Assembly (NCBI GenBank): GCA_003157485.1
Contig: PMJQ01000101.1
Location: 11,443-75,442, forward strand
DNA length: 64,000 bases
Direction of reading: 5' to 3'
Source of the DNA: Ignavibacteriota bacterium
GTDB lineage: Bacteria > Bacteroidota > Ignavibacteria > UBA10030 > UBA6906
The position numbers were made by a program, and so were the translations under genes. Numbering within the stretch: the first letter of the stretch is position 1; the number at the start of each line of letters is the position of its first letter. This document shows positions 590 to 63,527 of the stretch, one piece after another. The notes under the pieces are model-generated. The model searched no databases, was not told where the DNA came from, and was given only the letters and a program-made list of their open reading frames with translations.

Positions 590-602
590 GGTCGACTTTC
601 AG

Positions 603-618
603 GTTTCATTTATGAAAC
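603..618. promoter_or_regulatory. perfect 7-2-7 inverted repeat GTTTCAT-TT-ATGAAAC (candidate operator) in the divergent intergenic region
   Basis: Read directly: gtttcat tt atgaaac. It lies 14 nt upstream of the minus-strand ATG at 589 and about 75 nt upstream of the + strand promoter candidate. Confidence 0.3.
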
Positions 619-693
619 GACAGTTCCATGCATGATCTGCGGGACAACATAGGCAATGGACCGGCAAACCGCAACGGCGGAAGAAAAAAAAAC

Positions 694-722
694 TTGACAA
701 AGCACCGGCATTGTGGTATTTT
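694..722 (+). promoter_or_regulatory. sigma70-like promoter: TTGACA, 17-nt spacer, TATTTT, preceded by an A9 tract
   Basis: TTGACA at 694-699, spacer 700-716, TATTTT at 717-722, A-run at 684-692 (UP-element-like). This is the only AT-rich patch upstream of the receptor gene and leaves a leader of about 230 nt before the ATG at 952. Confidence 0.5.
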
Positions 723-951
723 CACTCTGGTAAAACGCCATTCCAATAGTGAAACGCAGGCTTCCCCGGCAATCCGCCTGACGCATTCACACACGGTTGC
801 AGACTCACTTCTCATCCTGTTCATTCCAAAATCACGCGCGTGCGGCCGGCCCCATCCGGGGCGGCGGCAGAATGCAGTTGCGCATAGTTCTCGCAATTCA
901 TCGGATCACTATTCACCGAACCACTCACCACAGAAGTAAGGGAGGAACCAT

Positions 952-3900
952 ATGAGGCAACGATGGTACCATTTCCTGTGTCTTTTGCTGCTCATTGCCG
1001 CGGCCGCCACGCCGCCGGCACTCGCGGCAAACGGCAAGATCGTGGGGATTGTTCGTGACGCTTCCACCAAGGATGTCATCCCCGGCGCGAACGTGCTGGT
1101 GGTCGGGACGACCCTCGGCGGCGCTGCGGACGCGCAGGGACGCTACTATATACTGAACGTTCCCCCGGGAACGTACTCGCTGCAGGCCTCGGCCGTCGGT
1201 TACGGCAAGCTGCGGATCGATGGGATCGACATCGTGCAGGATCAGACGGTGGAGATGAACGTCACGCTGACGAGTCAGGACGTCCAGATCGGCGAGATGG
1301 TCATCACCGCCGAGCGGCGCGTCGTGGACAAGAACCGCACGTCCACGAAGACGACGGTCACCTCCGATGAAATCCAGAATCTGCCGACGGTCACCGTGAT
1401 CGACCTCCTGAACTCGACACCGGGAGCGTTCAACGGGTTCGTGCGCGGCGGGCGCATCACGGAGACGAAGACGATCGTCGAAGGCGTCGATATCACAAAC
1501 CAGTTCTACGAAAACATTACGGAGCAGTCGAACCAGGGTATCCTTCAGTCGACAGGTCACCTCACCCGCCACAACGTCGGTGAGATGAACACGACGACCG
1601 ATATGAACTTCGCGGCAATCGAGCAGTTCTCGCTGAATACGGGCGCATCGGGTGCGGACGTCCAGTCTGCAACCGCGGGAACGATCAACTATTCTCTCAA
1701 GGAAGGAACCGGGCCTCTCTCGGGGAGCATCCAGGCGCGCCTGAGCCAGTTCAACGGACTCCACCACGCCGGTCCCGACGTCTACAACCTCGACTATGTT
1801 TACTTCGCCGACGAGAACACGGTGAACACGCGCCTCGGGTCCAACCGCCATGTGAGGGACTCCCTCGTCAGCGGACACTTCTCGCTCCCGACGTCGCTCA
1901 CCGGTGCCATAACCACCGACAGCATCCGGTCGGGGAAGTACTCGTACTACCCCGGCAAGTACATCAACGGCAACCATCCTCTTCTTGATTTCAGCGGATC
2001 GGTCGGCGGAGCCATTACGGATGAATGGCGTTTCTTCCTGACGGGAAAATACCTGGATTCGCACGGCTATTTCCCGAACGACAGGAGCCGCGAGGCCGAC
2101 ATCACGCTGAAAACATCGTACAACCTCACGAACGCGATGAAGCTGAACGTGTTCGGCATCGTCAACGACAAGGGGAAACTCTTCAACTGGAAGAACTCCA
2201 CGTACAACGACGATGCGCGGTATTTCCTTGAAGGCGTTCCGCAGAACCAGGGACTCGACTACACGGGAAGCGTCAAGCTGACGCACGTGCTGACGCCTGC
2301 CACGTTCTACGAAGTCCAGGTGAGCCAGGTCTATCATAACCTCATCTACGGGTTCACGGACGGCAACGGGGACGGGTACTGTGCGCTGAACGAAAGCGGC
2401 GACTTCCTGACGATGTCCGACACCGCCTCGATAAGCAAATACATCTCCCAGTCGGGCGGGGATCTCAGCAAGTTCTTCCGTATCGGGGATGAAGCCGGCC
2501 CGAGCCAGATCGCCGCTCCCCTGAACATCGGCAACAGGCAGGCCGATATCACGCGCCCGATGTTCATCTATGAGAACTCCAAATCGATCGCCCGCACGGT
2601 CAGGGCTGACCTGACGAGCCAGGTCGATTACCACCATCAGATCAAGACCGGATTCCTGTTCAAGTTCAACGAGGTCTCGTACATCAACAGGAACACAATG
2701 CTCGGCGCCGACGGGATGGACACGCGTTCCCGCCTGATCGTGGATAACTGGAAGTTCTTCCCGACGGAAATGTCCGTGTATGCGTCCGACAGGATGGAGT
2801 TCGGCGGGCTCGTGATCAACCTGGGCCTCCGCGGCGACAGGTGGGATCCGAAAGCCCCCGATTACGCAAATTACTTTTCGCAGTTCACGCCCGACACGAT
2901 CATGATCGACGGCCAGCTGCGCCGTGCGAACTCGATCCTGCGGCAGACCAAGAACATCGACCCGATGTACTTCGTGTCGCCCCGCATCGGCGTGTCGCAT
3001 CCTATCTCCGAGACCGCGGCGCTCTTCTACAGCTATTCGCGCCAGGCGATTCCTCCCCCGTATTCACGGATGTACTCGAGCTTCTACACCGTGTTCGGGA
3101 CAAGCCTCCCGAGCTTCACCGCGCTGAACGAGCCGCTGACGAAATCGTCCAACTATGAACTCGGTGCACAGTGGGAATTCCTCCCCGGGAAACTGGGACT
3201 GAATTTCACGGCGTACATGCGCGACGTGGAAAACTACAATCCGAACACATCGGTCGCAATATTCCCGCCCGCGGGCGGACAGACGCAGATGTATTTCGAC
3301 GCCCAGTATGCGGATGCGCGCGGCGTGGAAGTGAGCATCCAGGCGGCCCGGCAGCGGTACTTTGATATTGCCACCGTCAGCGGGCGCCTGAATTACGCCT
3401 ACACGTACATCAAGGCATCAAGCTGGACGGGAAGCGACGCCACAAAGACGAATGTGACGTCATTCCAGGCTGCGGACTCCGCGAAATACAACAACACGCT
3501 TCCGTTCGGCGACTTTGTGTACTATAACAAGGTGCAGACCGACGTTGCGGGCGGCGCGAGCACGCTGACCGGCGGATATGACCGGACACACAGGATCACA
3601 TACCTGCTGTCCATTGAATTTCCCGAGGACATCATCCTCTCGTCGCTCGGAACGTTCCAGAGCGGGTTCTTCTACCCCATCTACTACCCCCTGGATGCGC
3701 GCGTGGCGGGAAGGGAGCTCGCGAACGCTCCGTGGAACAAAATGGTCGACGTGAAGCTGGAGAAGGGTTTCCGCTTTGAGAACATCCGCTTTGCGGTGTT
3801 CGCGGAAGTGAAGAACTTCTTCAACTGGACGAACATCATCGGCTACGACAATACGGCCAGCGGCGCCGCCCTGTGGGAAGCCACGAACGGCAACGGCACG

Positions 3901-4044
3901 ACGCTGTCGAACCCGTACTACGCGGGGACGGCTGCGACGGGTCCGGATCCCACGGGTCTCTACAAGCGGTCGATGAATTCTGATGGAAGCTGGTTCTATG
4001 ACATCCCGCGCGAATATTACTTCGGGATCCGGGTTGACCTCTAA
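952..4044 (+). CDS. TonB-dependent outer-membrane receptor with N-terminal carboxypeptidase-regulatory-like domain
   Basis: Signal peptide 'MRQRWYHFLCLLLLIAAAATPPALA'. CarboxypepD_reg-like 'GKIVGIVRDASTKDVIPGANVLVVGTTLGGAADAQGRYYILNVPPGTYSL'. Plug-like 'TSDEIQNLPTVTVIDLLNSTPGAFNG'. Long beta-barrel-like C-terminus ending 'YYFGIRVDL'. SD AAGGGAGG sits 6 nt before the ATG. Confidence 0.85.
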   Translation: MRQRWYHFLCLLLLIAAAATPPALAANGKIVGIVRDASTKDVIPGANVLVVGTTLGGAADAQGRYYILNVPPGTYSLQASAVGYGKLRIDGIDIVQDQTVEMNVTLTSQDVQIGEMVITAERRVVDKNRTSTKTTVTSDEIQNLPTVTVIDLLNSTPGAFNGFVRGGRITETKTIVEGVDITNQFYENITEQSNQGILQSTGHLTRHNVGEMNTTTDMNFAAIEQFSLNTGASGADVQSATAGTINYSLKEGTGPLSGSIQARLSQFNGLHHAGPDVYNLDYVYFADENTVNTRLGSNRHVRDSLVSGHFSLPTSLTGAITTDSIRSGKYSYYPGKYINGNHPLLDFSGSVGGAITDEWRFFLTGKYLDSHGYFPNDRSREADITLKTSYNLTNAMKLNVFGIVNDKGKLFNWKNSTYNDDARYFLEGVPQNQGLDYTGSVKLTHVLTPATFYEVQVSQVYHNLIYGFTDGNGDGYCALNESGDFLTMSDTASISKYISQSGGDLSKFFRIGDEAGPSQIAAPLNIGNRQADITRPMFIYENSKSIARTVRADLTSQVDYHHQIKTGFLFKFNEVSYINRNTMLGADGMDTRSRLIVDNWKFFPTEMSVYASDRMEFGGLVINLGLRGDRWDPKAPDYANYFSQFTPDTIMIDGQLRRANSILRQTKNIDPMYFVSPRIGVSHPISETAALFYSYSRQAIPPPYSRMYSSFYTVFGTSLPSFTALNEPLTKSSNYELGAQWEFLPGKLGLNFTAYMRDVENYNPNTSVAIFPPAGGQTQMYFDAQYADARGVEVSIQAARQRYFDIATVSGRLNYAYTYIKASSWTGSDATKTNVTSFQAADSAKYNNTLPFGDFVYYNKVQTDVAGGASTLTGGYDRTHRITYLLSIEFPEDIILSSLGTFQSGFFYPIYYPLDARVAGRELANAPWNKMVDVKLEKGFRFENIRFAVFAEVKNFFNWTNIIGYDNTASGAALWEATNGNGTTLSNPYYAGTAATGPDPTGLYKRSMNSDGSWFYDIPREYYFGIRVDL

Positions 4045-4085
4045 TGATATTCCACCCTCACTTTCAAGGGACGAAAGGTATTCGT

Positions 4086-6677
4086 ATGAATAACCGACTG
4101 AAGATATTGATCGCATGCGCGTTCGTCGCGCTGGCGATCGTCCCGACGTCGCTCATGGCGCAGGTCATCACTCCGACAACCGTGTTCAACTACGGTGGAG
4201 CGGGTGTGATCTGTGCGGGCGACGTCTGGGAATCGTTTCTCCCCCAGGGGACCACGCCCTACTACGGCGAGGCGACGACCGCCGCAACACTCGGCGTGCG
4301 CACGTTCTTCCGTATGGGGAACTTTGACCGCGCCTGGTCGACACCGGGGACGCACTTCCCCGCGGCGTTTCCCATAACGCCGTACTGGAACAAAGACGCG
4401 TGGGTGCTCGTCTACGATCCAGACTCCACGTGGAACCGCGGGCCCGCGAGCGGGAATCCGAGCTTCTTTCCGATCTCTGCCGAAAACGGAGGGGTCGCAA
4501 ATTACTCCTACTTCGCGCAGCTGACGTACAAGTCGACGCTCGCCGGCGCCGGCGACCCGACCCGGAAATACGCAAACGATCCGATCTGGGCCGACGGGAC
4601 GACGCGCCAGCATGCCGTGTACGAGGCGGCATGGCCGACGAATCTCGGCGTCGACGTCAAAATGCGCGCGCACGGGTTTGCCGCGCCGAACTGGGACAAC
4701 CTGAACGACTTCGTCATCGTCGAGATTCAGTTGAAGAACACCGGATTCCTCGACATGAATATGGACGGCAAGCCTGACACGGCGACCTATCCCAATGCCC
4801 TGAAGCACGACATCAAGGCGCTCGCGTTCCAGGTTCAGGAGCAGTCGTACATGTCGATTTCCAGCTACGCGTGCGGCGGCCGGTGCGTCAACGACGTCGT
4901 CCCCACGATCTACGCGCGCCAGGCGGGGTGGGTGGATGATCCCGATAGTGCGGGGAATCCCTGGGCGTTCAGCATGATGTTCCCGAGCGCGACAACGCTG
5001 AATGCGGTCCCTGGGAGCGGGAACGTCGATATCGGGTTCAACGGCGGCACCACGAAGAACTACATGGACCTGCACCACGGATGGGTGATGATCGACGTCA
5101 AGAGCGGCGGACTGCCGTCTTCACCGCTCCACAGCACGGGGAGCCTTCCGTCAAAGCAGACGATATTCGGGACCCACCCGATCGGCACGGGCGCCCAGCG
5201 CGGCTGGTACATGTCGGGCGGAAGCAGCTGGTTCGTCGGTTCGGCCTCCGATCCGAGGAAGATGTTCTATATTACGACGGGCGTCTGGTACGCCAACGGC
5301 GGCCAGCTCTCGCACAACACGGACTTCAATGCGCTCAACCTCGCCCCGAATCCCAATTACTTCGCTTCGGGCACATCGGGCCTTCCGCTCACGTTCGTTC
5401 CGAAGGGATCTCCCACGCGTCCGAACGGCGACTACAAGAGCACGGGCCACATGGACCAGACGTCGTATGAGGACGGTTCTGCGAATGCTACGACATCGTA
5501 TCCGACCGGCTGGGGAAAGTGGACCGCCGGCGTGGCAGGGATGCTCGGTTGCAGCCATACGGAGAATTTCGACGACGACATGTTCACGGGCGTCGGCCCC
5601 TTCGACCTGAAGAAGGACTCGACGATAACGATCGTGTTCGCCACTGTGGCGGGGTACAGGCTCGAAGGGATACAGCGCGCCGTCCGCGCGGCCCGGTGGG
5701 CATATGAGAACGACTACCAGATCCCGAAGACGCCTCCGCTCCCGAACATGAAGGTGTCGAACACGCTGAACAAGAGCGTCGCGCTCGAATGGGACGCGGC
5801 TGCCGAGACCGATGCCGGGTTTGCGGGATACAAGATCTGGAAATCGTCGCAGTTCAAAAAACTCCGGTGGCTGGACGAGGGGATGCGGGTTGTCGACTAC
5901 TATCAGGACCAGATGACGGTCGGACCGCGTCCGGCGAACCTCTACAAGCCGGTGAACCCGAAGTTCGATGCGTTCACGAAGACAAACACGAATTCGTCGC
6001 AGGGGACGTACCAGCCCGACACATGGGGAACCTGGGACCTCCTTGCGGTAATCCCCAAGGCGAACGTCCCGTCTCTTACAAAGTCGACGACAACGGGATA
6101 TGCCTACAGGTACGAAGACAAGGACGTGATCCTCGGCTTCCAGTACTGGTACTATATCTCGGCGTACAAAACGGGGACGTTCACAGGGCCGGGCGGCGAC
6201 CAGACAACCCAGATCGAGACGCACTCGACGAACCGGAACGGCGCCACGGGTCTCTGGCTCAATACGTTCCCCTTTGCGTACACGAACGCGAACTATCCGG
6301 CGAACAACGCGACGCTCCTGAAAAACCTCGGCGGCGCGCAGGTCGTCACGTCCGCGCTCGCCCCGAGAGGGGACCTGAGCAAGGTCGGCGTCAGGCCGAA
6401 CCCGTACAAGAGGGCGGCCCTGTTTGACAACCGATCACAGGTGTACGATCACAAGCTCGTGTTCTACAATCTTCCGCCCCAGTGCAAGATCACGATACTC
6501 GATGTTGCCGGCCAGATCATCGATGTCATAAACTTCGTGTCGAACGATCCCAGCAAGGGAAGCGTGTTCTGGGATATGTTCTCGAAGGACGGCATCGAAG
6601 TGGCGAGCGGCGTGTATATCTATGTGGTGGAATCGCCCACGATGAAGCATGTGGGTCAGTTTGCGATTCTCCGATAA
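4086..6677 (+). CDS. large secreted protein of unknown function with FN3-like region and T9SS/FlgD-Ig-like C-terminal sorting domain
   Basis: Start chosen at 'MNNRLKILIACAFVALAIVPTSLMAQ' (Sec signal); the track ORF begins 14 codons earlier at 4044. FN3-like 'SVALEWDAAAETDAGFAGYKIWKS'. C-terminal 'VRPNPYKRAA...LVFYNLPPQCKITILDVAGQIIDVI...GVYIYVVESPTMKHVGQFAILR' resembles Por-secretion-tail/FlgD-like CTDs. Confidence 0.7.
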   Translation: MNNRLKILIACAFVALAIVPTSLMAQVITPTTVFNYGGAGVICAGDVWESFLPQGTTPYYGEATTAATLGVRTFFRMGNFDRAWSTPGTHFPAAFPITPYWNKDAWVLVYDPDSTWNRGPASGNPSFFPISAENGGVANYSYFAQLTYKSTLAGAGDPTRKYANDPIWADGTTRQHAVYEAAWPTNLGVDVKMRAHGFAAPNWDNLNDFVIVEIQLKNTGFLDMNMDGKPDTATYPNALKHDIKALAFQVQEQSYMSISSYACGGRCVNDVVPTIYARQAGWVDDPDSAGNPWAFSMMFPSATTLNAVPGSGNVDIGFNGGTTKNYMDLHHGWVMIDVKSGGLPSSPLHSTGSLPSKQTIFGTHPIGTGAQRGWYMSGGSSWFVGSASDPRKMFYITTGVWYANGGQLSHNTDFNALNLAPNPNYFASGTSGLPLTFVPKGSPTRPNGDYKSTGHMDQTSYEDGSANATTSYPTGWGKWTAGVAGMLGCSHTENFDDDMFTGVGPFDLKKDSTITIVFATVAGYRLEGIQRAVRAARWAYENDYQIPKTPPLPNMKVSNTLNKSVALEWDAAAETDAGFAGYKIWKSSQFKKLRWLDEGMRVVDYYQDQMTVGPRPANLYKPVNPKFDAFTKTNTNSSQGTYQPDTWGTWDLLAVIPKANVPSLTKSTTTGYAYRYEDKDVILGFQYWYYISAYKTGTFTGPGGDQTTQIETHSTNRNGATGLWLNTFPFAYTNANYPANNATLLKNLGGAQVVTSALAPRGDLSKVGVRPNPYKRAALFDNRSQVYDHKLVFYNLPPQCKITILDVAGQIIDVINFVSNDPSKGSVFWDMFSKDGIEVASGVYIYVVESPTMKHVGQFAILR

Positions 6678-6703
6678 CCACACCAATTGATGAGGACTGA
6701 ACA

Positions 6704-7744
6704 ATGAAACGTAACTATGTCATACCGCTTATCGCTGTTCTCCTGCTGGCGGTCGGCGCGACCCTCGGGGTGGCGCAGACGCAGAAGGCGGGGATCAACA
6801 GCGCCGCGTTCCTCAAGGTTGGTGTGGGGGCCCGCCAGGTTGCTCTCGGTTCGGCCGTCACGTCTCTGAACGGGGACGCAACGAACATGTTCTGGAACCC
6901 CGCCGGTGTCGCGCTCAGAGATGAGTCGGCACAGGCGTCATTCACCTACAACAACTGGATAGGGGGTCTCTCCCAGGAGGCGGTCGCCGCCAGCTACAAC
7001 TGGAGCGACATCGGCACGATCGGGATCGGGTTCCAGTCGTTCGGCATCAACGGCATCACCGCCGACAGGGACAACGGGTACTCCGATCCCACGCTGCAGG
7101 CGCAGGTGACGGACAACAACACGTCCTCCACGTACAACTACCAGGACCTCTGCACGCAGATCACGTACTCCCGGTATATCACCGACTACCTTACGCTGGG
7201 CGCGTCGGTGAAGTACATACACGAGAGCATTGACGGCGTCGGGACGGGGACGGTCGCGTTCGATATGGGGACGGTGTACAACATCGGCCTCCTGGGATGG
7301 AGCGTGGGGGCGCGGATCTGCAATCTCGGGGGCGACATGAAGTTCTACGATTACTCCTCCCCGATCCCGCTGACCTTCTCCATCGGCACCTCCATGGCGC
7401 CCGTGGATGCGGGGATCACCAAGTGGATTCTCGCCCTCGACATCGTGAAGCCGCAGGACGGGACGCAGTACTATTACGCGGGGACGGAGCTCGGGTTCAA
7501 CCAGACGTTCTTCGTCCGGGCCGGCTGGAAGTTCAACTACAGCTGGTTCGGCCTTTCGGGGAGCGGCATTGATGCCGGGGCAACGTACCGGGCGCCGATA
7601 CAGACGACCCTCGAACGGGGATCGTTCGGCGCGGGTGTGCGGGTGCCGTTCGACACGTACGTGATCAATGTCGACTATGCGTACACCGTCTTCTCGGCGC
7701 TGAACGACGTTCATCGATTCACGATAAGCTTTGCCATGAAATAG
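6704..7744 (+). CDS. PorV/PorQ-family outer-membrane beta-barrel protein
   Basis: Signal peptide 'MKRNYVIPLIAVLLLAVGATLGVAQ'. Family-typical N-terminus 'GINSAAFLKVGVGARQVALGSAVTSLNGDATNMFWNPAGVA'. SD GAGGA upstream. Confidence 0.7.
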   Translation: MKRNYVIPLIAVLLLAVGATLGVAQTQKAGINSAAFLKVGVGARQVALGSAVTSLNGDATNMFWNPAGVALRDESAQASFTYNNWIGGLSQEAVAASYNWSDIGTIGIGFQSFGINGITADRDNGYSDPTLQAQVTDNNTSSTYNYQDLCTQITYSRYITDYLTLGASVKYIHESIDGVGTGTVAFDMGTVYNIGLLGWSVGARICNLGGDMKFYDYSSPIPLTFSIGTSMAPVDAGITKWILALDIVKPQDGTQYYYAGTELGFNQTFFVRAGWKFNYSWFGLSGSGIDAGATYRAPIQTTLERGSFGAGVRVPFDTYVINVDYAYTVFSALNDVHRFTISFAMK

Positions 7745-7778
7745 CCGTACCGCGGTTTCCGTTCGATTGAGAAACAAT

Positions 7779-7811
7779 AGTCAGGGTGAGCAACCCCCTG
7801 ACTATTTTTTT
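7779..7811 (+). terminator. rho-independent terminator after the PorV-like gene
   Basis: Stem AGTCAGGG (7779-7786) pairs with CCCTGACT (7796-7803) around a 9-nt loop, followed by A and T7 (7805-7811). Confidence 0.8.
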
Positions 7812-7837
7812 CCCGGGTTGCGCCACGGAGCACAGAC

Positions 7838-8863
7838 ATGGACAGGCTACCGCTTCTCCCGACGACGGTCATAGGCAGCTATTCCCTCCCCCCGTGGCTC
7901 GAAAAGGCACGGGATCTCGCCCGGCAGGGCGGCTTCGCCCCGGCCGATCTGGCGGAGGCGCACGATAACGCCGTGCGGTCCGCCGTCATGGACCAGGAGG
8001 TTGCGGGGGTGGACGTTGTCACCGACGGCGAGCTCCGCCGCGAGACCATGGTCAATTTCTTCTCCATGCGGATCGGCGGGTTCGACATGGCCGGAAAGTT
8101 GAAACCGATAGGGAACCTGGACCCGTCCATACAGATGCTCGATCCGGTCGTCCGGGAAAAGGTGAGCCGGAAAGGCCCGCTCGGGATGGACACGCACTTC
8201 CGTTTCCTCAAAGGGTGCGCGCGCGCCCGGACGAAGGTCTGCGTGACCGGCCCCCAGATGCTCGCAAAGAGGGCGACGAACGAGTTTTACGCGACGGACA
8301 GGGAGCTTGTCTTCGACCTGACGGACATCTTGAACGCGGAGCTCAAGGGGCTGGTGGCCGCCGGATGCGATTTCATACAGATCGACGAGCCGGTCTGGGT
8401 CGGCTACCCGCAGGACATGGGCTGGCTTGTTGAATCATTCAACAGGCTTGTGGAGGGCGTCGGCGCAAAAATCGCGCTGCATACCTGCTACGGCAACTAC
8501 AAGCTCAGGAAGCTGTTCAAGGGGCAGTACGACGAGCTTTTCCCGGCGATCCTTGAGTCGCGCACCGATCAGATAAGCATGGAATTCGCCGTGTCCGGCG
8601 GGGCGGGACTCGATCTCTTCTCCCGGTATCCATCCGACAGGGAGATCGTTGTGGGCGTCATCGACGTGAAGGACGAACAGATCGAAACCCCGGACGTCGT
8701 CGCCGCGCGGATCCGGAAGGCGCTCGAACATGTCCGGGCGGAAAAACTCTGGATCAGTCCGGACTGCGGAATGAAGTTCATGCCTCGCGACCGCGCGTTC
8801 GGGAAGCTGAAAGCGATGGTCGACGGGACCCGGATTGTCCGGACGGAGCTCGGCGCTCCCTGA
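7838..8863 (+). CDS. short cobalamin-independent methionine synthase-like protein (MetE C-terminal domain / Meth_synt_2 family, UROD/MetE-like fold)
   Basis: 'LPTTVIGSYSLPPWLEKA', 'VVTDGELRRETMVNFF', 'DFIQIDEPVW'. Putative Zn ligands 'ALHTCYGN' (H-x-C) and 'WISPDCGMK'. Confidence 0.8.
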   Translation: MDRLPLLPTTVIGSYSLPPWLEKARDLARQGGFAPADLAEAHDNAVRSAVMDQEVAGVDVVTDGELRRETMVNFFSMRIGGFDMAGKLKPIGNLDPSIQMLDPVVREKVSRKGPLGMDTHFRFLKGCARARTKVCVTGPQMLAKRATNEFYATDRELVFDLTDILNAELKGLVAAGCDFIQIDEPVWVGYPQDMGWLVESFNRLVEGVGAKIALHTCYGNYKLRKLFKGQYDELFPAILESRTDQISMEFAVSGGAGLDLFSRYPSDREIVVGVIDVKDEQIETPDVVAARIRKALEHVRAEKLWISPDCGMKFMPRDRAFGKLKAMVDGTRIVRTELGAP

Positions 8864-8885
8864 CCATGAAGACCGGCCCGAATCA

Positions 8886-11114
8886 ATGACAGCGCACGAA
8901 GGTTCCTCCCCGGGGAGGACGCTGCGTGAGGCGTTCAGCGCCATACGGGTGGTGACGTACGCGCCGGATGCACCCCTTGTCGTGCAGACCGTTGCCGCCT
9001 GCGCGGCGGAGGAACTGGCGCCGGGAGCGGCGGTCGTGTGCCTCCGCACCGGAGAGCGCGCTCCGGACGGACCCCGTCTCCACATCGAGGCGGGATTTCC
9101 CCGCGCCGGAGGCGATGACCTCCGCATGGAGCTTCGCATGGAGGCCGAAGGTCTTTGGGTCCTCTCGGCGCCGCGTGCGAATTCTCTCTACGCGCTCTTC
9201 TGCCTCGTCCGCGACGAGTGGCTTGACGGGACCGTGGCCGGATTCGCTCATGTGCGCGCCGTCCGACCATCCTTCCCATGGCTGAGAAACCTGAGCGATT
9301 TTCTTGTCGGGAGTCTCCGCACGTCCCGCGGTTTTTCCGGCGAGAATTACGTCCGTCATGCCGCACGGCTCGGGTTCACACACTGCACAGTCAATGGCCT
9401 TGCGGAGGGCCCTCCGTTTGAAAGCGGGCCTCCCGGGGACGTCTACTCCTGGTTTTACGATTACAGCCCGGATCTCGACCAGTTCGTCGACAGCGCACTC
9501 CTCCGCGGGTATTACCCGGCGGAGTACCTCCGGGCGAACCTCGCCGCGCTGAAGGCGAATGCCGCGCTCGCCGAACGCTACGGGCTCGTCCCGGGCCTCC
9601 ATATCAACTCCCCCCGGTCAATGCCCGAGGCGTTCTGGGAACGGTATCCGTACCTCAGAGGCGCGCGCGTCGACCACCCGCGCGAATCGTTCCGCCCCCG
9701 CTACACGCTCGCACTGGCCCATCCCACCGTCCGGGAGCATTACCGGGAGCTCCTCCGGAACATCCTGCGGGAGGTCCCCGCGATCGGCTTCATCCATCTC
9801 TGGACGAATGACAGCGGTGCGGGGTTTGAATTCGTCTCGTCGCTCTATGCGGGGAGGAACGGTGGGCCGTACCTGATACGCGAATGGAAGAGCGACGCGG
9901 ACATCGCGCGGGCCGCGGCGGGGAATGTCCTCGCGTATCTCGGTCTCCTGCGCGATGAATGCGCGGCCGTGAATCCCGAATTCCGGCTGATATGCGACGT
10001 CGCCTCGTTCGGGGCGGAGCGCCGGTACATCGTTTCGTCCCTTGGCAGCGGCATCGATGCCGGTGAATTCGGCTCGTTCGCCGGAGGGGTCTCGCGCCGG
10101 GAAAAGAGTATACTCGGGTTTGTCGGCGCGTGGATGCACGGGAGGGAGGATCCCGGGTGCCCGTGCGTGATCGGGGTCCCGTCGCCTGTTCTTCTTCATG
10201 AACGGCTCTCGCGCGCGCTCCGCGAGGGGATGCCCGGCCTCCTTGCATCCCCCGCTCCGGCGTCTCTTGCTCCCTATGACGTCAACAGCGAGGTCATCCG
10301 GTCTTTCCAGTTTGCCCCCTCACGGCCGCTCGGGGAGATACTCGCGCGCGCGGCGATTGCGTGGGCGGGAGAGGGGGGTGCGCGCGACCTCGTCGCGATC
10401 TGGCTTCTCGCGGACGAGGCGGTCCGTTCGGTCCCGCCCGGCGTCCCTCTCGGCACGTTTGCCTACCCCTGGTTCAGGCTCAGCGTCCGGCCCTTTGTCC
10501 CTGACATCGGGGCGATACCGGAACGCGAGCGCGAGTACTACGAGCGGTACATGCTTGCGACGTTCAACAACCCGGCCCGTGTGGATCTGAACAATGATAT
10601 GCTCTGGAACTTCCTGACCGTGGAGGAAGCGCTGGAGAAAATGCGCGCATTCGACATTGCGGTCTTTCCCCCTCTGGAGAAGGCCGTCGCCGGTGCGGGG
10701 GACTCTCTGCGGCGTTCCGCGTCCGCGGAGGCCGGGCGCGTATTTGCCGACGTCCGCGACAGGCTGCGAGCCTGGCGGTCTTATGCCATGACGCTCCGGA
10801 ACATGCTTGCGTGGACCGCCTCCGTCCACGGATACATCAACGCGGTGCCGGGGCCCGCGAAGGACCGGTTCAGAACGCTCTGCCGGGAGATGGTGCAGAG
10901 TGAGCTCGGGAATGCGCGGGATCTCCTTGAGCTATGGCGGGAATCGGACGTGACATTCATGCCGGTTGCCGCGCGGGGGGAGACGCTCCACACGTACGGG
11001 ACGAATTTCGGCGGCCTTCTTGAGGAGAAGATCCGCCTGATGGAGCTTCACGCAGGGGACGAACCGCATATCGATCCCGGCTTCATGTGGAGAATGCAGC
11101 GCATGTCGCACTGA
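8886..11114 (+). CDS. uncharacterised ~740-aa cytoplasmic protein, family A copy 1 (paralog of 52143..54467); possibly glycosidase-like
   Basis: Clear paralogy with 52143..54467: 'RYPYLRGARVDHPRESFRPRYTLALAHPTVREHY...WTNDSGAGFEFVSSLYAGRNGGPYLIREW' versus 'RYPVLRGARVDHPMRSFHPRYNLSVAHPVVLEHY...WSNDSGAGFEYTSSLYVGRNGGGYLVREW'. No signal peptide. Start at 'MTAHEG' (the track ORF starts 17 codons earlier and overlaps the upstream gene). The functional guess is only an impression. Confidence 0.6.
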   Translation: MTAHEGSSPGRTLREAFSAIRVVTYAPDAPLVVQTVAACAAEELAPGAAVVCLRTGERAPDGPRLHIEAGFPRAGGDDLRMELRMEAEGLWVLSAPRANSLYALFCLVRDEWLDGTVAGFAHVRAVRPSFPWLRNLSDFLVGSLRTSRGFSGENYVRHAARLGFTHCTVNGLAEGPPFESGPPGDVYSWFYDYSPDLDQFVDSALLRGYYPAEYLRANLAALKANAALAERYGLVPGLHINSPRSMPEAFWERYPYLRGARVDHPRESFRPRYTLALAHPTVREHYRELLRNILREVPAIGFIHLWTNDSGAGFEFVSSLYAGRNGGPYLIREWKSDADIARAAAGNVLAYLGLLRDECAAVNPEFRLICDVASFGAERRYIVSSLGSGIDAGEFGSFAGGVSRREKSILGFVGAWMHGREDPGCPCVIGVPSPVLLHERLSRALREGMPGLLASPAPASLAPYDVNSEVIRSFQFAPSRPLGEILARAAIAWAGEGGARDLVAIWLLADEAVRSVPPGVPLGTFAYPWFRLSVRPFVPDIGAIPEREREYYERYMLATFNNPARVDLNNDMLWNFLTVEEALEKMRAFDIAVFPPLEKAVAGAGDSLRRSASAEAGRVFADVRDRLRAWRSYAMTLRNMLAWTASVHGYINAVPGPAKDRFRTLCREMVQSELGNARDLLELWRESDVTFMPVAARGETLHTYGTNFGGLLEEKIRLMELHAGDEPHIDPGFMWRMQRMSH

Positions 11115-11130
11115 GGAGGGAGGGAATCCT

Positions 11131-11922
11131 ATGGAACAGTACCCGCTCACGGAGGATCACGTCGCGTTTTTCCGGGACAACGGATATGTCCGGCTGGACG
11201 GGGTCCTGAGCGTTCAGGAAGTGGAAGCGCTGCGTGTGGCGCTCGATGTGGCGGTGGAAGACCGCCGCAGGTACGAGGGGAACGAAGGACCGCGCACCGA
11301 CCCGGGCTATGCAAAGGTGTTCCTTCAGATGGTGAACCTCTGGGAGCGCTATCCCGCCTTCCGAACCCATGCGCTGAACCCCCGCATCGGCGGGATCGCG
11401 CGCAGGCTCGCACGGGCCGGCAGCGTACGCCTGTGGCACGACCACGCGCTCATCAAGTACCCGAAAGACAGCAAGCCGACGGTCTGGCATCAGGACTGGG
11501 TCTACTGGCCAATGCACGAGACGGGAGCCCTCTCCTGCTGGATGGCGCTCGACGACGTCACGGTCAAAAACGGCTGCATGTCGTTCATCCCCGGCTCGCA
11601 CAGGCTCGGACCGTGCGACCCGATCGACCTGGGGAATGCGACGGAAGAGACGCTGCTGGCGAAGTTTCCGCCGGAGCAGAGGAAGAAATTCCTTCCCGTC
11701 GCCGTCGAGATGAAGGCGGGGAGCTGCACATTTCACGACGGACTGACGTTTCACTACGCCGGGCCGAACACGTCGGAAAGCCCCCGCCGCGCGATGGTGA
11801 CGATCTACATGCCGGGGGGGACAAGGTACAAAACGCTGGAGCATATTATCGGCGACAGGTCGGGGCTCAGAGAGGGAGAGGAGTTTCACGGCCCGCTCTT
11901 CCCCGTCGTGGCGGGGGAGTGA
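11131..11922 (+). CDS. phytanoyl-CoA dioxygenase (PhyH) family Fe(II)/2-oxoglutarate-dependent oxygenase
   Basis: 'FFRDNGYVRLDGVLS', 'VWHQDWVYWP' (H-x-D), 'ALSCWMALDDVTVKNGCMSFIPGSHRLG', 'GSCTFHDGLTFHYAGPN'. SD GGAGGGAGGG upstream. Confidence 0.8.
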   Translation: MEQYPLTEDHVAFFRDNGYVRLDGVLSVQEVEALRVALDVAVEDRRRYEGNEGPRTDPGYAKVFLQMVNLWERYPAFRTHALNPRIGGIARRLARAGSVRLWHDHALIKYPKDSKPTVWHQDWVYWPMHETGALSCWMALDDVTVKNGCMSFIPGSHRLGPCDPIDLGNATEETLLAKFPPEQRKKFLPVAVEMKAGSCTFHDGLTFHYAGPNTSESPRRAMVTIYMPGGTRYKTLEHIIGDRSGLREGEEFHGPLFPVVAGE

Positions 11923-11925
11923 GCC

Positions 11926-13533
11926 ATGCGCCCCTCACACACAGGCGGCACAACGCTCCGCTCGGGGAACCCGTCGCTCGATGCGCTCGTCCCCCGGGTC
12001 CGGGATTTCCTCTCACGCGACGTCAGCTCGTACGTGATGTTCGGCCGTTCCGTCAGGGGGTACCGTTCTCCGGACACCCCGGCCATCTGGATCCGCGATC
12101 ATTCCGACATGCTGCGGGGGGCGAAGTACTGGGAGCGCGACATGAAGAGCGCCGTCGATCATTTCGCGGAGATGCAGTCGGAGGCGGGGTGGCTCTTCGA
12201 CTATTTCACGATGACGCCGGAGAAAGTGCCGTGCGAGAAGGAGAACTGGGCCAAGTACGTGCGTGTCCCGGTGGAGGCCGACGTCGAATACCGGTTCATC
12301 AAGGCCGTGTACCTGGCGTGGCAGGCGACGGGAGACGATCGGTGGATGAAGGGGATGATCCCGCGCATGGAGAAGGCGCTTCGCTACGTGATGACCGATC
12401 CCTGGCGGTGGGACCGGAAGCTCAGGCTCGTGAAACGCGCCTACACGATCGATACGTGGGATTTTGACTATACGGCCGGGCGTTACCCCTGGCTGAATTT
12501 CCGGGTGGACGATGAGACGTACTGGGGGATCATGCACGGAGACAGCTCCGGGTATTACGAGGCGTTCATGAATCTCGCCGCCATGCACGCGCACGCACAC
12601 GGCCGCGCTGCCTCCCTCAGGTGGAGAAGGTTCGCCGCCGCATTTCGCGCTCGAGCGAACAGGGCGTCGTTCAACGGCAGGTTTTACCGCCACCGCGTAC
12701 CCATCACGCCGGTGGAGATACCGGGGGTGGACCCCGAATCGCAGCTCACGATAAGCAACCCGATGGACATCAACAGGGGACTGGCGGCACACCCGATGGC
12801 GCTCTCCATCATAGAAGAATACAGGCGGCGCGGCGCGGCGAACGGGTTCGCCGCCGACTGGGTGAGCGTCGACCCCCCGTTTCCCGCGGGGATCTTCGGC
12901 GAGCCGAAGCTTGTTCCCGGTTCGTACTGCAACGGCGGGCTCATGCCCCTTGTGGGGGGCGAACTTGCGCGCGCGGCGCTGGAGCACGGAAGGGAGGCCT
13001 ACGGCGTGGCGCAGCTCCTCCGGTACGAGGAACTCACGCGGGGGAACGAAACGTACCTCTGGTATTTCCCGGACGGGCGGCCCTCCTCGATCGAGACCAG
13101 CACGAGTCCCGATGCCTCGCCGAGCGACGGATGGGGCTCCTCGGCGATGCTCTTCGCTCTCCTGGAGGGCCTCGGCGGCGTCGTTGACGCGTCGTCCCTG
13201 TACAGGGACGTCCGGCTCTCGCCGCGCTGGGCTGCCGCGGAATGCGACGATGTTTCCCTGTCGGTTTCATATGCCGCATCGGGAGCCGGTATCGGTTACC
13301 GCTACACGCACGATGCGGCGAAAAAGACAATTGTCCTCGGCATTCACGCCCGGGCGGCAATCGACATGCACCTCCTTCTTCCGGATGCCGCGCGCGTGCT
13401 CACGGTACGCGTCAACGGAAAGACCGTGCGGCACATGGATGTGAGCGTGGAACAGAGCTCATATGCAGATGCCCGGTTCCCCGTCCGGGGGAATGCGGAA
13501 GTCGTCGTTCACTATGATGAAAAGAGGAAATGA
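11926..13533 (+). CDS. six-hairpin (alpha/alpha)6 glycosidase-like protein, family not assignable by eye
   Basis: 'PAIWIRDHSDMLRGAKYW', 'EADVEYRFIKAVYLAWQATGDDRWM' and 'YCNGGLMPLVGGELARAALEHG' are typical of GH63/GH15/debranching-type toroids. No signal peptide. Confidence 0.55.
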   Translation: MRPSHTGGTTLRSGNPSLDALVPRVRDFLSRDVSSYVMFGRSVRGYRSPDTPAIWIRDHSDMLRGAKYWERDMKSAVDHFAEMQSEAGWLFDYFTMTPEKVPCEKENWAKYVRVPVEADVEYRFIKAVYLAWQATGDDRWMKGMIPRMEKALRYVMTDPWRWDRKLRLVKRAYTIDTWDFDYTAGRYPWLNFRVDDETYWGIMHGDSSGYYEAFMNLAAMHAHAHGRAASLRWRRFAAAFRARANRASFNGRFYRHRVPITPVEIPGVDPESQLTISNPMDINRGLAAHPMALSIIEEYRRRGAANGFAADWVSVDPPFPAGIFGEPKLVPGSYCNGGLMPLVGGELARAALEHGREAYGVAQLLRYEELTRGNETYLWYFPDGRPSSIETSTSPDASPSDGWGSSAMLFALLEGLGGVVDASSLYRDVRLSPRWAAAECDDVSLSVSYAASGAGIGYRYTHDAAKKTIVLGIHARAAIDMHLLLPDAARVLTVRVNGKTVRHMDVSVEQSSYADARFPVRGNAEVVVHYDEKRK

Positions 13534-15773
13534 AACGTAGAGAGTTTCTCGTTGCCCCCGTATTCTCTCTCGCAGCTCCCGCGTTTGCCCGCATCGGTCC
13601 GCTCCTCCCCGGTGACCCTGAAAATCCGGCCCCGGCTCCCGGAACGGCCGTGAACGTCCAGCAGCGCCTCCATCAGGATTTCATCACGTACGCCCCCGGC
13701 ATTGAATACTTCATGCTCGGCAACGGCGACATACAGGCGGTCGTGCAGTACTGCCCCGACCGCACCGGCGCCCTTCCGCAGACGTTTCTCGGGCTGACGG
13801 TATTCGATCCCGAGCGCTTCGGGCGGAAGTGGAGCACGTTTCTGTTCGATCCCGAGAGGGGGTTCGAAAGGACCCGCGTCTCTGTCATCGTGGGGGGAAA
13901 AGGAGGAGTCTCTGTGGCGCCGGAGAATTTCTCCTCGGTCGGGTGGACCTATCCCCGTGCGATTCCGACCGTCGAGTGCCGGTGGCACGCGGGGACCATC
14001 GGCGTCGTTGAGCGATTCTCCGTCCCCGCCTCAGGGGCGCTCCTCTTCCGGGAGGTGACGCTTGAAAACAACGGCGCTGCCCCCGCAGATCTGAAGCTCT
14101 TCGCGGCGCTTCTTCCGAACTTTGCGCTCTTTGATGAGATAGGGCCCGACGAGAAGTCGGCCGCGGTCCGGGGCCGCGGATTCGCCTCGATCTCGCTCCG
14201 GTCGCTCGACGGGGAGGTTGCCGTCTCGGGACGGTACGACATGACGGTCGCGCCCGGCACGATACCTGCGGGCAAAAGCGCGCGGGTACGGCTGGTGTAT
14301 TCCATCGATCCCGCCGGCGCGCTCATCGGCCCCGGCGCATACGACACGCTCGTCGACGGGACCGAAACATGGTGGAACGCCCGCTCCTCCGTCACGACAG
14401 GGCATGAAGTCCTCGACCATCTCTTCGGCGTCTCGCGCTCGGGCCTCCGCGCAATGCTTGCCAGGAGCGGAAAGAGGGACTCCGGGACGTGGATGTACAA
14501 CATGGAGTGGGTCAGGGACGACGTGATGGTCGTGATCGCGCTCCTCCAGTCCGGGATGGTCGCCGAAGCGAAGACGCTCCTCAAGAAGCTGCTGGAAAAA
14601 TCGGTCGGGCCCGATGGGAGAACGTTCGAATCGAGCCGCTGGGCGGGTTTCGACTACACGGAGCTTGACCAGAACGGCGAGCTCCTCTACGCACTCTGGA
14701 TGTATGCGGCGTGGACGGGAGATTTGGATTTCGTCAAGAATTACTGGACGCGGATCACGCACGTGGCCTCGTTCCCGCTGCAGGATCGATTCCGCGACGG
14801 GGATTCCGGTCTCATGCATAACAGGCGGGAATTCTGGGAGCGGAACGACTCGTTCGGCGTCGAAGACGGGTACGAACTGACATACCAGTTCTGGGTCTCG
14901 TTCGGGCTCGCGCATGCCGCGGAGCTCGCCGACGCAATCGGTGCGTCCGAGGGGAAGTCATGGAGGGAAGCCGCCGGGGGGTTGCGCGAGGCGATACTCA
15001 CCCACCCGAAATTCAGGCTTGTGGAAGAGGGGCATTTCATAAAGCGGAGAACCCGCGACGGGAGGTGGCAGCGGTTTATGATCCCTCCCGATCCGGCGCG
15101 TATGCCTCCGGGGTCGCCGCTCGCAGGGAACGCGAGGCCCGCGTGCGAGCCGGATCTCGGGAGCGTCATTCCGGTGATGTACGGTTTCGTCGAACCGGGG
15201 AGCGACATCGCCCTCGGCACGCTCCGCGACTGCGAAAGGCTCTGGAGCCAGGCGTGGGATTTCGGAGGCTATCCGCGCTACAACACGGAGAGCGAACCCG
15301 ACCCCCCGGCTCCCTGGCCTCTGGCAACGCTTTTCATGGCGAGAGCATATGCGGAGGCCGGGAACTGGCCGAAATTCTGGCAGTGCGTGAAGTGGGTAAG
15401 GACCATTCACGGCGGCCTCTCGGGGGGGTGGTTCGAGCGGTACGGGCCGAGCATTACTCCTCCCGCTCCCCCGGTCTGCGTGATCGGCTGGGCATGGGCG
15501 GAGATAACGTCTCTTCTTGTCCATCATGTCGCGGGGGTTCGCCCGGGCCTGGACGCTCTGACGGTCCGCCCGCGGCTCCCGGAAGGGGTCGATGCGTTGA
15601 CCGGATCGTTCCTGATCCGCGGCACCGTCTGCACGCTCTCCGTCCGCCGGACGCACGCGGCTCCCTCGGCACGCGTGAACGGCCGGAATGTCCCGGTGGC
15701 GAATGGCGCTCTCATTGTCCCGTATGGCGGCCTCACACCGGGAGGGGGAGTGATCGAGATGGAGGTCCCGTGA
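13530..15773 (+). CDS. GH15-like (glucoamylase/glucodextranase/trehalase-type) six-hairpin glycosidase with Tat-type signal
   Basis: 'MKRREFLVAPVFSLAAPAFA' (RR-x-F-L). 'GTWMYNMEWVRDDVMVVIALLQSG', 'TELDQNGELLYALWMYAAWTGD', 'HNRREFWERNDSFGVEDGYELTYQFWV'. ATGA overlap with the upstream stop. Confidence 0.75.
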   Translation: MKRREFLVAPVFSLAAPAFARIGPLLPGDPENPAPAPGTAVNVQQRLHQDFITYAPGIEYFMLGNGDIQAVVQYCPDRTGALPQTFLGLTVFDPERFGRKWSTFLFDPERGFERTRVSVIVGGKGGVSVAPENFSSVGWTYPRAIPTVECRWHAGTIGVVERFSVPASGALLFREVTLENNGAAPADLKLFAALLPNFALFDEIGPDEKSAAVRGRGFASISLRSLDGEVAVSGRYDMTVAPGTIPAGKSARVRLVYSIDPAGALIGPGAYDTLVDGTETWWNARSSVTTGHEVLDHLFGVSRSGLRAMLARSGKRDSGTWMYNMEWVRDDVMVVIALLQSGMVAEAKTLLKKLLEKSVGPDGRTFESSRWAGFDYTELDQNGELLYALWMYAAWTGDLDFVKNYWTRITHVASFPLQDRFRDGDSGLMHNRREFWERNDSFGVEDGYELTYQFWVSFGLAHAAELADAIGASEGKSWREAAGGLREAILTHPKFRLVEEGHFIKRRTRDGRWQRFMIPPDPARMPPGSPLAGNARPACEPDLGSVIPVMYGFVEPGSDIALGTLRDCERLWSQAWDFGGYPRYNTESEPDPPAPWPLATLFMARAYAEAGNWPKFWQCVKWVRTIHGGLSGGWFERYGPSITPPAPPVCVIGWAWAEITSLLVHHVAGVRPGLDALTVRPRLPEGVDALTGSFLIRGTVCTLSVRRTHAAPSARVNGRNVPVANGALIVPYGGLTPGGGVIEMEVP

Positions 15774-31476: not shown

Positions 31477-31489
31477 TCGGAACGGGCTC

Positions 31490-40438: not shown

Positions 40439-40452
40439 GAGGAAGGAGTCAC

Positions 40453-41463: not shown

Positions 41464-41749
41464 TAAATATCCCGGACTCTCCCCGCTCCCCCCGCCGTTC
41501 GCAGGAGAGGATCCTCCGATCGCGGAGGTCATCGTGGAGAAGTGCATCGGGTGCGACAGGTGTCCCCCGCTCTGTTTCTTCGATTCGCTCTTTATGGAAG
41601 AAGCGCCGGGACACCCGTTCGGGCGCGTCGCCCTGGTCGTTCCCGGAAAATGCACCGGGTGCGGCCTCTGCTTTGAAGCATGCCCCGTGGATGCGTTCCG
41701 GTGGGTTCCCGGCCCGCGTCCTGCCCGCGGGGGGAGGGAGGACAGATGA
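41432..41749 (+). CDS. 2x[4Fe-4S] ferredoxin-domain protein
   Basis: 'CIGCDRCPPLC' and 'CTGCGLCFEACP'. Overlaps the end of the DHOD-like gene in another frame; ATG 41447 is an alternative start. Confidence 0.65.
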   Translation: MTDREMTGKSDKYPGLSPLPPPFAGEDPPIAEVIVEKCIGCDRCPPLCFFDSLFMEEAPGHPFGRVALVVPGKCTGCGLCFEACPVDAFRWVPGPRPARGGREDR

Positions 41750-54467: not shown

Positions 54468-54468
54468 C

Positions 54469-58212: not shown

Positions 58213-58218
58213 GGAATT

Positions 58219-61958: not shown

Positions 61959-61982
61959 GCGCGTGCGGCCTCTCCTGTTCGT

Positions 61983-62861: not shown

Positions 62862-62871
62862 CGGCGTGGCC

Positions 62872-63507: not shown

Positions 63508-63527
63508 GGCGTTCTCCTCTCGTTGGG

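Follow-up and report, generated by a model that had tools for sequence, protein, structure and literature searches.

Recurrent URO-D/MetE-fold genes beside a family of predicted glycosidase-type enzymes in Ignavibacteriota suggest, but do not prove, oxygen-free removal of methyl groups from sugars

Why would a gene for a barrel protein of the URO-D/MetE type stand directly upstream of a gene for a large protein without a family assignment twice in one stretch of DNA? The stretch, hereafter the window, comprises 64,000 nucleotides (nt) of an Ignavibacteriota bacterium (assembly GCA_003157485.1, contig PMJQ01000101.1, positions 11,443 to 75,442), and we refer to the two large proteins as family A. 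The original prediction, made from the sequence alone, was that each pair is a functional couple of a methyl-handling barrel and a glycan-processing enzyme. All four open reading frames (ORFs) lie on the plus strand where it had placed them: a MetE-like gene ends in a TGA stop codon (8861-8863), with 22 nt between it and the start of family A copy 1 (ATG at 8886), and a URO-D gene, URO-D 2, ends in TAA (52115-52117), 25 nt before the ATG of copy 2 (52143). The link between the barrel genes and family A is real and has arisen with several barrel subfamilies, yet it is optional, and our best reading is that the paired genes are pathway neighbours and not subunits of one enzyme. Operons that combine family A with a B12-dependent methyl-transfer kit suggest, but do not prove, an oxygen-free removal of methyl groups from sugars.

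A profile search of the window retrieved family A exactly twice, a MetE-like gene once and URO-D three times, with one of the URO-D genes truncated by the window end. With about four such barrel genes among about 45 genes, the chance of finding one directly upstream of both family A copies is approximately (4/44) x (3/43), or about 0.006. A third family A copy beside the genes for a 598-amino acid (aa) protein and a BNR protein, an arrangement found in other genomes, was ruled out, as the window holds two copies.

The two family A copies are 38% identical end to end (E 1e-164). Neither matched a Pfam or NCBIfam family, and a profile of 29 members retrieved nothing from PDB sequences at E <= 1. 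Copy 2 has more than 1415 homologs, all annotated as hypothetical, and copy 1 has 976. The family forms 637 clusters at 50% identity in a library of 1.84 billion proteins and occurs in at least 533 species-level genomes, with hosts in the Ignavibacteriota/Bacteroidota, Opitutales/Puniceicoccaceae, KSB1, Acidobacteriota/Aminicenantes, Kryptonia and other groups; several paralogs per genome are common.

In an AlphaFold2 model, copy 2 consists of an N-terminal alpha/beta domain, a (beta/alpha)8 barrel and a C-terminal helical bundle. Foldseek matched this model over its whole length to the glycoside hydrolase (GH) family 138 alpha-galacturonidase 6hzf (E 6e-15, template modelling (TM) score 0.53), and further to GH20 hexosaminidases, GH89, the GH67 and GH115 alpha-glucuronidases and GH84 (E 1e-12 to 1e-8). 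Family A thus shares a three-part architecture with GH138 (BT0997/BP0997, 6hzf), GH20, GH67, GH84, GH89 and GH115, of which GH67, GH115 and GH138 are likewise found in uronic-acid glycan loci. It differs from the GH138/GH20 group in its identity to these structural matches of 8-15%, in its cytoplasmic location (a reading of both sequences found no signal peptide), in a subgroup of about 610 aa that has no N-terminal domain, and in that its activity is predicted from the fold. CAZy families are defined by sequence, and by Pfam, NCBIfam and PDB sequence comparison family A falls in none of these look-alike families. The motifs LRGARVDHP, WxNDSGxGFE and GRNGGxYxxREW are invariant and form loops after barrel strands. 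Many arginines are invariant too, as are the acids E175, D194, D259, D305, E311, E329 and E374, of which D305 follows a barrel strand directly as part of N304-D305; the per-residue model confidence (predicted local distance difference test, pLDDT) of the loops is below 50. We read family A as a predicted cytoplasmic glycosidase-type enzyme, with the activity deduced from the modelled fold, and its substrate is possibly an acidic sugar. The carbohydrate-related role first proposed for it agrees with every context seen, namely the glycosidase-type fold and neighbours encoding lyase-like, GH38 and BNR proteins, a sugar kinase and a sugar transporter.

We compared the surroundings of family A in 159 loci, each with flanks of 7 kb. 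Species-representative genomes contributed 80 loci, ranked by how closely they resemble copy 2, and metagenomes contributed 79, ranked by resemblance to copy 1. Their ORFs were labelled with the window proteins and with URO-D and MetE profiles, and a Pfam check upheld 42/42 MetE-like and 61/61 URO-D labels. Adjacency is reported as raw locus counts, without a genome-wide background. Clustering at about 52% identity divided family A into 11 subfamilies. Two family A genes stand in tandem in one locus (L039, 6971-11788), and two other loci (L089 and L135) each hold two genes of different subfamilies about 5 kb apart.

In the clade of copy 1, family A is immediately preceded by the MetE-like gene in 45 of 63 cases; the median gap is 49 nt, overlaps are frequent, and the adjacency persists among family A proteins that are only about 53% identical. 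A URO-D gene lies directly downstream of family A in 20 of 61. The operon runs from a receptor-like gene through the 877-aa protein, PorV-like, MetE-like and family A genes to PhyH or URO-D, the proteins unk535 and unk747, an aminotransferase and an SSF transporter, and the order of its first five genes is kept in metagenome loci. The slot after family A is filled in two ways (loci L081-L137): PhyH follows a full-length family A protein of about 739 aa in 16 loci, and a URO-D gene with an H-M-C motif follows a family A protein of about 609 aa without the N-terminal domain in 20. This alternation is the pattern expected of oxic and anoxic alternatives of one step.

The clade of copy 2 has the order (MtaB), ROK, (URO-D 3), lyase-like, (DeoC), PfkB, (URO-D 2), (corrinoid protein, MtaB), family A, glycerate kinase and transporter, where brackets mark genes that are not always present. 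PfkB, URO-D 2, the corrinoid protein, MtaB-like and family A are contiguous in 13 genomes. Immediately before family A, 14 loci have an MtaB-like gene, 13 have PfkB and 6 have URO-D, so that PfkB is the commonest or second commonest direct upstream neighbour and the arrangement seen in the window is that of a minority of the relatives of copy 2.

Across subfamilies, a URO-D or MetE gene lies within three genes of family A in 36/42 loci of cluster 1, in 27/47 of cluster 5 (the copy-2 clade, with URO-D), in 3/7 of cluster 10 (Aminicenantes, 'Eubacteriales') and in 1/4 of cluster 11. The link therefore recurs with at least four URO-D/MetE subfamilies and in 4 of the 11 family A subfamilies, and the adjacency exceeds chance, as the original prediction had supposed and had proposed to check by such a comparison. 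Because the other seven subfamilies have no URO-D/MetE gene within three genes (0/11 in Opitutales), family A does not need one. Among 116 immediate neighbours in distant loci, Pfam identified 4 URO-D and 0 Meth_synt_2 proteins; found instead were AP_endonuc_2, FG-GAP/ASPIC, GFO oxidoreductases, SSF transporters, Hepar_II_III and BNR.

Loci of Opitutales/Puniceicoccaceae (marine Verrucomicrobiota, L049-L064) combine family A with a Hepar_II_III-like protein, FG-GAP/ASPIC, a xylose-isomerase-like TIM barrel, a GFO oxidoreductase, a TonB receptor and LacI. Methyl-transfer genes are absent from them, and they represent a different, methyl-free version of the locus.

These counts bear on the idea that family A and the barrel encoded upstream of it form an obligate heteromeric enzyme, which would explain why the gaps are so short (22 and 25 nt for the two pairs here, and between -4 and 20 nt in many related loci); the loops of family A with the strongest conservation, poorly modelled alone, could then be missing a partner or a ligand. 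The partner varies, however, between MetE-like, three URO-D subfamilies, MtaB-like and PfkB, and it is absent in most subfamilies. Fusion proteins were not found among the 637 representative clusters, where the long proteins resemble frameshifted gene calls, and in the window the paired genes occupy different reading frames. We consider an obligate complex very improbable, and the more general claim of a dedicated two-component couple is not supported by the comparison, given that the direct neighbour in the copy-2 clade is more often MtaB-like or PfkB than URO-D and that seven of 11 subfamilies, all Opitutales included, lack the link. The few long proteins (P0284, P0265, P0340 and P0373) contain low-complexity, frameshift-like stretches and are not real fusions of family A with a URO-D/MetE protein. 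No terminator was found between the paired genes in a scan of positions 600-18100, which returned fewer promoter and terminator sites than shuffled sequence and is uninformative for Bacteroidota promoters.

The first of the barrel proteins, the MetE-like protein, has its best PDB match in 3rpd (E 1.4e-42), assigned by Price et al. to the MesD core methionine synthases (PMC7857596). Its residues H215, C217, E249 and C310 align to the zinc ligands of MetE and are invariant in 43 homologs, as are the homocysteine-binding residues I12, S14, E65, M71 and D276; these roles are described for MetE (PMC539065) and, for the Ser, Glu and Asp, also in PMC7857596. Full-length MetE, with two barrels and about 750 aa, was rejected as an identity for this single 341-aa Meth_synt_2 barrel, which scores 121 bits against TIGR01371 (cutoff 930) and is missing the folate-binding N-terminal domain. 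Because the ligands are kept and there is no folate-binding domain, its sequence predicts a zinc-dependent homocysteine S-methyltransferase that needs a non-folate methyl donor. Core methionine synthases use such donors, probably corrinoid proteins (PMC7857596, PMC7005905). With MesA-MesD (PMC7857596) and core-MetE (PMC7005905) the protein shares the single barrel of about 340 aa, the four zinc and the Ser/Glu/Asp homocysteine ligands and the absence of a folate domain; in contrast to them, it is encoded in a glycan operon before family A and not beside CoFeSP, MtrA or DUF1852 (MesX), and its score is below the NCBIfam methionine synthase cutoff (PRK04326, 310 vs 406 bits).

Conservation of all homocysteine-binding residues, as in bona fide methionine synthases (PMC7857596), would also be expected if the neighbourhood were inherited synteny without a shared pathway, with the MetE-like protein a housekeeping core methionine synthase and the URO-D proteins part of general corrinoid metabolism. 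The association is strong only in related Ignavibacteriota/Bacteroidota clades and is missing from other family A subfamilies, which fits this explanation. We nevertheless judge it unlikely: four URO-D/MetE subfamilies stand beside four family A subfamilies, including loci from Acidobacteriota/Aminicenantes, 'Eubacteriales' and Cytophagia; the MetE-like gene lies inside an operon, between an outer-membrane gene and family A, at the close spacing and over the range of family A divergence given above; and a separate homocysteine methyltransferase system is also encoded in the window.

The literature places URO-D and MetE proteins in one superfamily (PMC10418091), as the original prediction stated, although no pairwise similarity could be detected between the MetE-like and URO-D proteins of the window. 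Among the members of the URO-D superfamily are corrinoid O-, S- and halogen-demethylases (PMC10418091). Among PDB proteins, URO-D 2 is closest to MtaA (4ay7, 8e-17), against 4e-9 for the HemE-type 3cyv. Against the MtaA/CmuA model TIGR01463 (cutoff 235 bits), URO-D 2 scores 74 bits and URO-D 3 scores 33. The positions that we take to be the zinc ligands of MtaA (H240, C242 and C319, an H-x-C...C site) are V, G and T in URO-D 2 and I/V, G and T across 19 homologs. An MtaA-type thiol methyltransferase was rejected for URO-D 2 in view of the absent zinc ligands, and HemE in view of a score far under the cutoff (TIGR01464, 37.5 vs 303 bits). URO-D 3 keeps the H-x-C motif (H265 and C267, invariant in 11 homologs) with Ser in place of the third cysteine, and it had no match among PDB sequences. 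The label of methyl handling given to these barrels thus suits the MetE-like protein, which keeps its zinc and homocysteine ligands, and the locus as a whole, with its MtaB-like protein, corrinoid protein and RACo, but not URO-D 2 as an enzyme with the zinc site of MtaA.

The missing zinc site leaves room for other sugar chemistry by the URO-D/MetE-fold proteins, for example a cofactor-free decarboxylation of a uronic-acid derivative or a thiol addition. The pathway handles uronic acids, and true URO-D is a decarboxylase. Set against this, URO-D 2 is far closer to MtaA than to HemE by the values above, it is contiguous with the corrinoid protein and MtaB-like genes in 13 genomes, and the homocysteine site is kept in the MetE-like protein; we hold such chemistry to be highly unlikely.

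The window encodes the set for a multi-component corrinoid system: an MtaB-like protein, three URO-D proteins, a corrinoid protein, a PF02574 homocysteine S-methyltransferase and RACo. In the MtaB-like protein E164 and C220 (by our residue count) are conserved, as is a KDC motif taken to hold C269. MtaB-like genes occur in non-methanogenic Bacteroidota/Ignavibacteriota, in the window (with conserved zinc ligands) and in loci L009-L025, L034 and L044. The minus-strand operon at 59695-63998 looks like a split, MetH-like methionine-forming system with URO-D where the pterin-binding module is expected. In five loci (L001, L005, L010, L018 and L021) a minus-strand URO-D gene occupies the corresponding place downstream of family A, and in L001 it stands beside RACo.

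Like MtaABC of methanogens and the bacterial O-demethylase and quaternary-amine systems with RamQ/RACo (PMC8604678, PMC3727330), the window combines an MT1, a B12 carrier, URO-D methyltransferases and an ATP-dependent activase. Here, in contrast, these genes stand in polysaccharide operons of non-acetogenic, non-methanogenic Bacteroidota/Ignavibacteriota, URO-D 2 has no zinc site for coenzyme M, no pterin-binding MT2 was seen, the acceptor is likely homocysteine, and the donor may be a sugar.

The similarity of the MtaB-like protein to methanol:corrinoid methyltransferase (4e-94), with its zinc ligands kept, raises the possibility of methanol salvage, in which an esterase or a beta-elimination would release methanol from uronic-acid methyl esters, the MtaB-like, corrinoid and URO-D proteins would pass its methyl group on to methionine, and family A would be an ordinary glycosidase. 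MtaB, corrinoid protein and URO-D follow one another as in the MtaABC trio, uronic-acid polymers are suggested by the lyase-fold and GH88-like genes, and pectin-derived methanol is a common substrate in anoxic sediments (PMC13391211). This route is improbable in our view: the scanned window genes include no recognisable carbohydrate esterase, the MtaB-like protein reaches 425 bits against the NCBIfam MtaB equivalog cutoff of 720, and copy-1 loci hold MetE-like and URO-D genes without an MtaB-like gene.

The lyase-fold protein encoded after URO-D 3 is weakly marked by sequence (Pfam Hepar_II_III E 0.0063, under the cutoff). Its model has an (alpha/alpha) toroid and a beta-sandwich, and Foldseek matched it to polysaccharide lyase (PL) family 39 (6jp4, E 7e-18, TM 0.60) and then to PL17, PL12, PL15 and PL21, with E values to 1e-10. 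BLASTP against the second Hepar_II_III protein of the window was not significant, an hhalign comparison with a Hepar_II_III-positive alignment yielded a probability of 2.8%, and PF16889 or PF07940 is carried by 3/120 of its homologs; the assignment comes from the predicted fold. The original prediction counted URO-D 3 and this gene as a third pair. URO-D 3 does end 9 nt before a gene for a lyase fold, and stands directly before the lyase-like gene in 10 of about 25 related loci, but only the lyase-like protein is exported, URO-D 3 being cytoplasmic, which makes a physical couple impossible; the third pair is an operon neighbourhood only.

Seen together with PfkB, the DeoC/LacD aldolase, glycerate kinase, GH38, BNR, the second Hepar_II_III protein, SSF transporters and an enolase-superfamily dehydratase (all by Pfam), these genes make the window look like a single large region for a glycan that contains uronic acids (Table 1). 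By sequence comparison, the protein at 58219-59598 is probably a divergent enzyme of the GH88 type with which the lyase pathway is complete. The region just before the MtaB-like gene (39113-43505) encodes an MR_MLE enolase-superfamily dehydratase, a DHO_dh-like flavoenzyme, a 'putative cyclase' hydrolase and an M20 peptidase, and the M20 and cyclase genes recur in copy-2-clade loci; there are hints here of acyl or amino-acid decorations on the glycan. Five large proteins without Pfam families (535, 747, 598, 667 and 877 aa) recur beside family A in several phyla, and of these unk535 and unk747 co-occur with family A in several phyla.

Table 1. Features of the window, by position
Feature	Position	Strand	Size	Basis and remarks
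CarboxypepD_reg receptor-like	952-4044	+		Pfam; head of copy-1 operon, outer-membrane uptake
877-aa protein	4044-6677	+	877 aa	Head of copy-1 operon; no Pfam family
PorV/FadL-like barrel	6704-7744	+		Putative; PorV-like label read from the sequence
MetE-like single barrel, core methionine synthase type	7838-8863	+	341 aa	Pfam Meth_synt_2 E 1.8e-44
Family A copy 1	8886-11114	+	742 aa	Predicted cytoplasmic; glycosidase-like three-domain architecture
PhyH Fe(II)/2-oxoglutarate dioxygenase	11131-11922	+		Pfam PhyH 6.5e-40
unk535	11926-13533	+	535 aa	No family match; PDB sequence search: none
unk747	13530-15773	+	747 aa	Weakly GH15-like; TreH1 1.5e-13, far under cutoff; PDB sequence search: none
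598-aa protein	27567-29363		598 aa	BNR protein always next downstream
667-aa protein	31346-33349		667 aa	No Pfam family
MtaB-like methyltransferase, methanol:corrinoid methyltransferase fold	43528-44910	+		Pfam MtaB 3e-156; PDB 2i2x 4e-94
URO-D 3	45909-47048	+		Pfam URO-D E 1.2e-13, C-terminal half only
Exported lyase-fold protein, heparinase II/III type	47058-49316	+		AlphaFold2 pLDDT 79.7; N-terminal signal peptide read from sequence
DeoC/LacD-family aldolase	49268-50155	+		Pfam
PfkB sugar kinase	50152-51078	+		Pfam
URO-D 2	51089-52117	+	342 aa	Pfam URO-D E 1.6e-41
Family A copy 2	52143-54467	+	774 aa	AlphaFold2 pLDDT 81.5, predicted TM score (pTM) 0.87
Glycerate kinase, SSF transporter, GH88-like	54376-59598	+		Pfam; first two start codons uncertain
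GH88-like unsaturated glucuronyl hydrolase (putative)	58219-59598	+		No Pfam match; PDB 1vd5 E 6.7e-10
Corrinoid methyl-transfer operon	59695-63998	-		Pfam
RACo reductive activase	59695-61212	-		Pfam
DUF1638	61209-61958	-		Pfam
Homocysteine S-methyltransferase PF02574	61983-62948	-		Pfam
Corrinoid protein	62872-63507	-		Pfam; vs L014 homolog 2e-60
URO-D, partial (window end)	63528-63998	-		Pfam

Gene content, folds, ligand conservation and conserved neighbourhoods, all shown by the analysis, lead us to propose that family A and the barrel proteins catalyse consecutive steps of one cytoplasmic uronic-acid glycan pathway to which a corrinoid-dependent demethylation has been added, a proposal to which we give an even chance of being right. 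Heparinase II/III-fold lyases would cut a uronic-acid-containing glycan in the periplasm, and the oligosaccharides would be imported and acted on in the cytoplasm by family A, with its GH20b-like N-terminal domain, barrel and helical bundle. In Ignavibacteriota and related Bacteroidota, and sporadically elsewhere, this operon would have acquired a methyl-removal module of URO-D-family and MtaB-like methyltransferases, a corrinoid carrier with RACo, and the MetE-like and PF02574 proteins as methyl sink. Family A and other glycosidase-like enzymes would release a methylated sugar; an MT1, either MtaB-like or an H-x-C URO-D protein, would move its methyl group to Co(I)-corrinoid; and the MetE-like or PF02574 protein would move it from the corrinoid to homocysteine, giving methionine. 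The demethylated sugar would proceed to the kinase and aldolase steps, and PhyH, which occupies the URO-D slot after copy 1, may be an oxygen-dependent alternative. We infer the donor, which could be a methylated sugar or methanol from a methyl ester, as well as the direction, order and partners of methyl transfer.

A bolder form of this proposal, tentative and in our estimate rather doubtful, is that family A is a new GH family and that the URO-D, MtaB-like and core-methionine-synthase genes make up a new oxygen-independent corrinoid pathway from methylated sugars (ether or ester) to methionine in anoxic soils and sediments, with PhyH as its oxic counterpart.

Several observations weigh against the proposed pathway. 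None of the enzymes present is known to act on methylated sugars, the methylated-sugar substrate being an assumption, and no paper in the literature searched connects corrinoid methyltransferases with methyl sugars. Within 7 kb, the copy-1 loci have neither a corrinoid protein nor a DUF1852 gene; the corrinoid protein of the window is encoded elsewhere in it (62872-63507). The MetE-like and MtaB-like proteins both score under their NCBIfam equivalog cutoffs, and URO-D 2 has the substituted zinc positions described above. Catalytic residues of family A are not assignable, and its most conserved loops are those of low model confidence. Seven family A subfamilies manage without a URO-D/MetE gene nearby. 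The loci compared were the most similar per scan (80) and are a non-random sample, and the two strongly linked clades are kin, of one lineage, so that their counts are non-independent and reflect inherited synteny in part.

Nothing relevant was found in the literature searched on 4-O-methyl-glucuronate catabolism, on MtaB in Ignavibacteria or on a GH family like family A, and the disposal of sugar methyl groups by anaerobes is undescribed there. Plant, algal and microbial glycans commonly contain methylated sugars, among them 4-O-methyl-glucuronic acid, 2-O-methyl-fucose, 2-O-methyl-xylose, 6-O-methyl-galactose and methyl-mannose. Marine porphyran degraders reportedly demethylate 6-O-methyl-D-galactose oxidatively with a cytochrome P450, as Reisky and colleagues are said to have described in 2018, and to our knowledge this oxygen-dependent P450 route is the only demethylation route placed inside a polysaccharide locus. 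There, demethylation within a polysaccharide-utilisation locus lets a methylated sugar enter central metabolism, and it would do likewise here if our proposal holds; the porphyran system depends on oxygen, whereas the proposed one would be corrinoid-dependent and oxygen-independent, with PhyH as a possible oxic variant.

If the proposal is true, family A would be a new glycosidase family spread over several phyla, and the genes around it would encode the first sugar-linked corrinoid demethylase system. It would also supply a physiological methyl donor for a new branch of the folate-independent core methionine synthases, and, in the communities of peat, fens and lake sediments, would connect the turnover of glycans with the demand for B12 and the flow of methyl groups. 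Read conservatively, family A is still a well-defined candidate for enzyme discovery, and its genomic context is clear.

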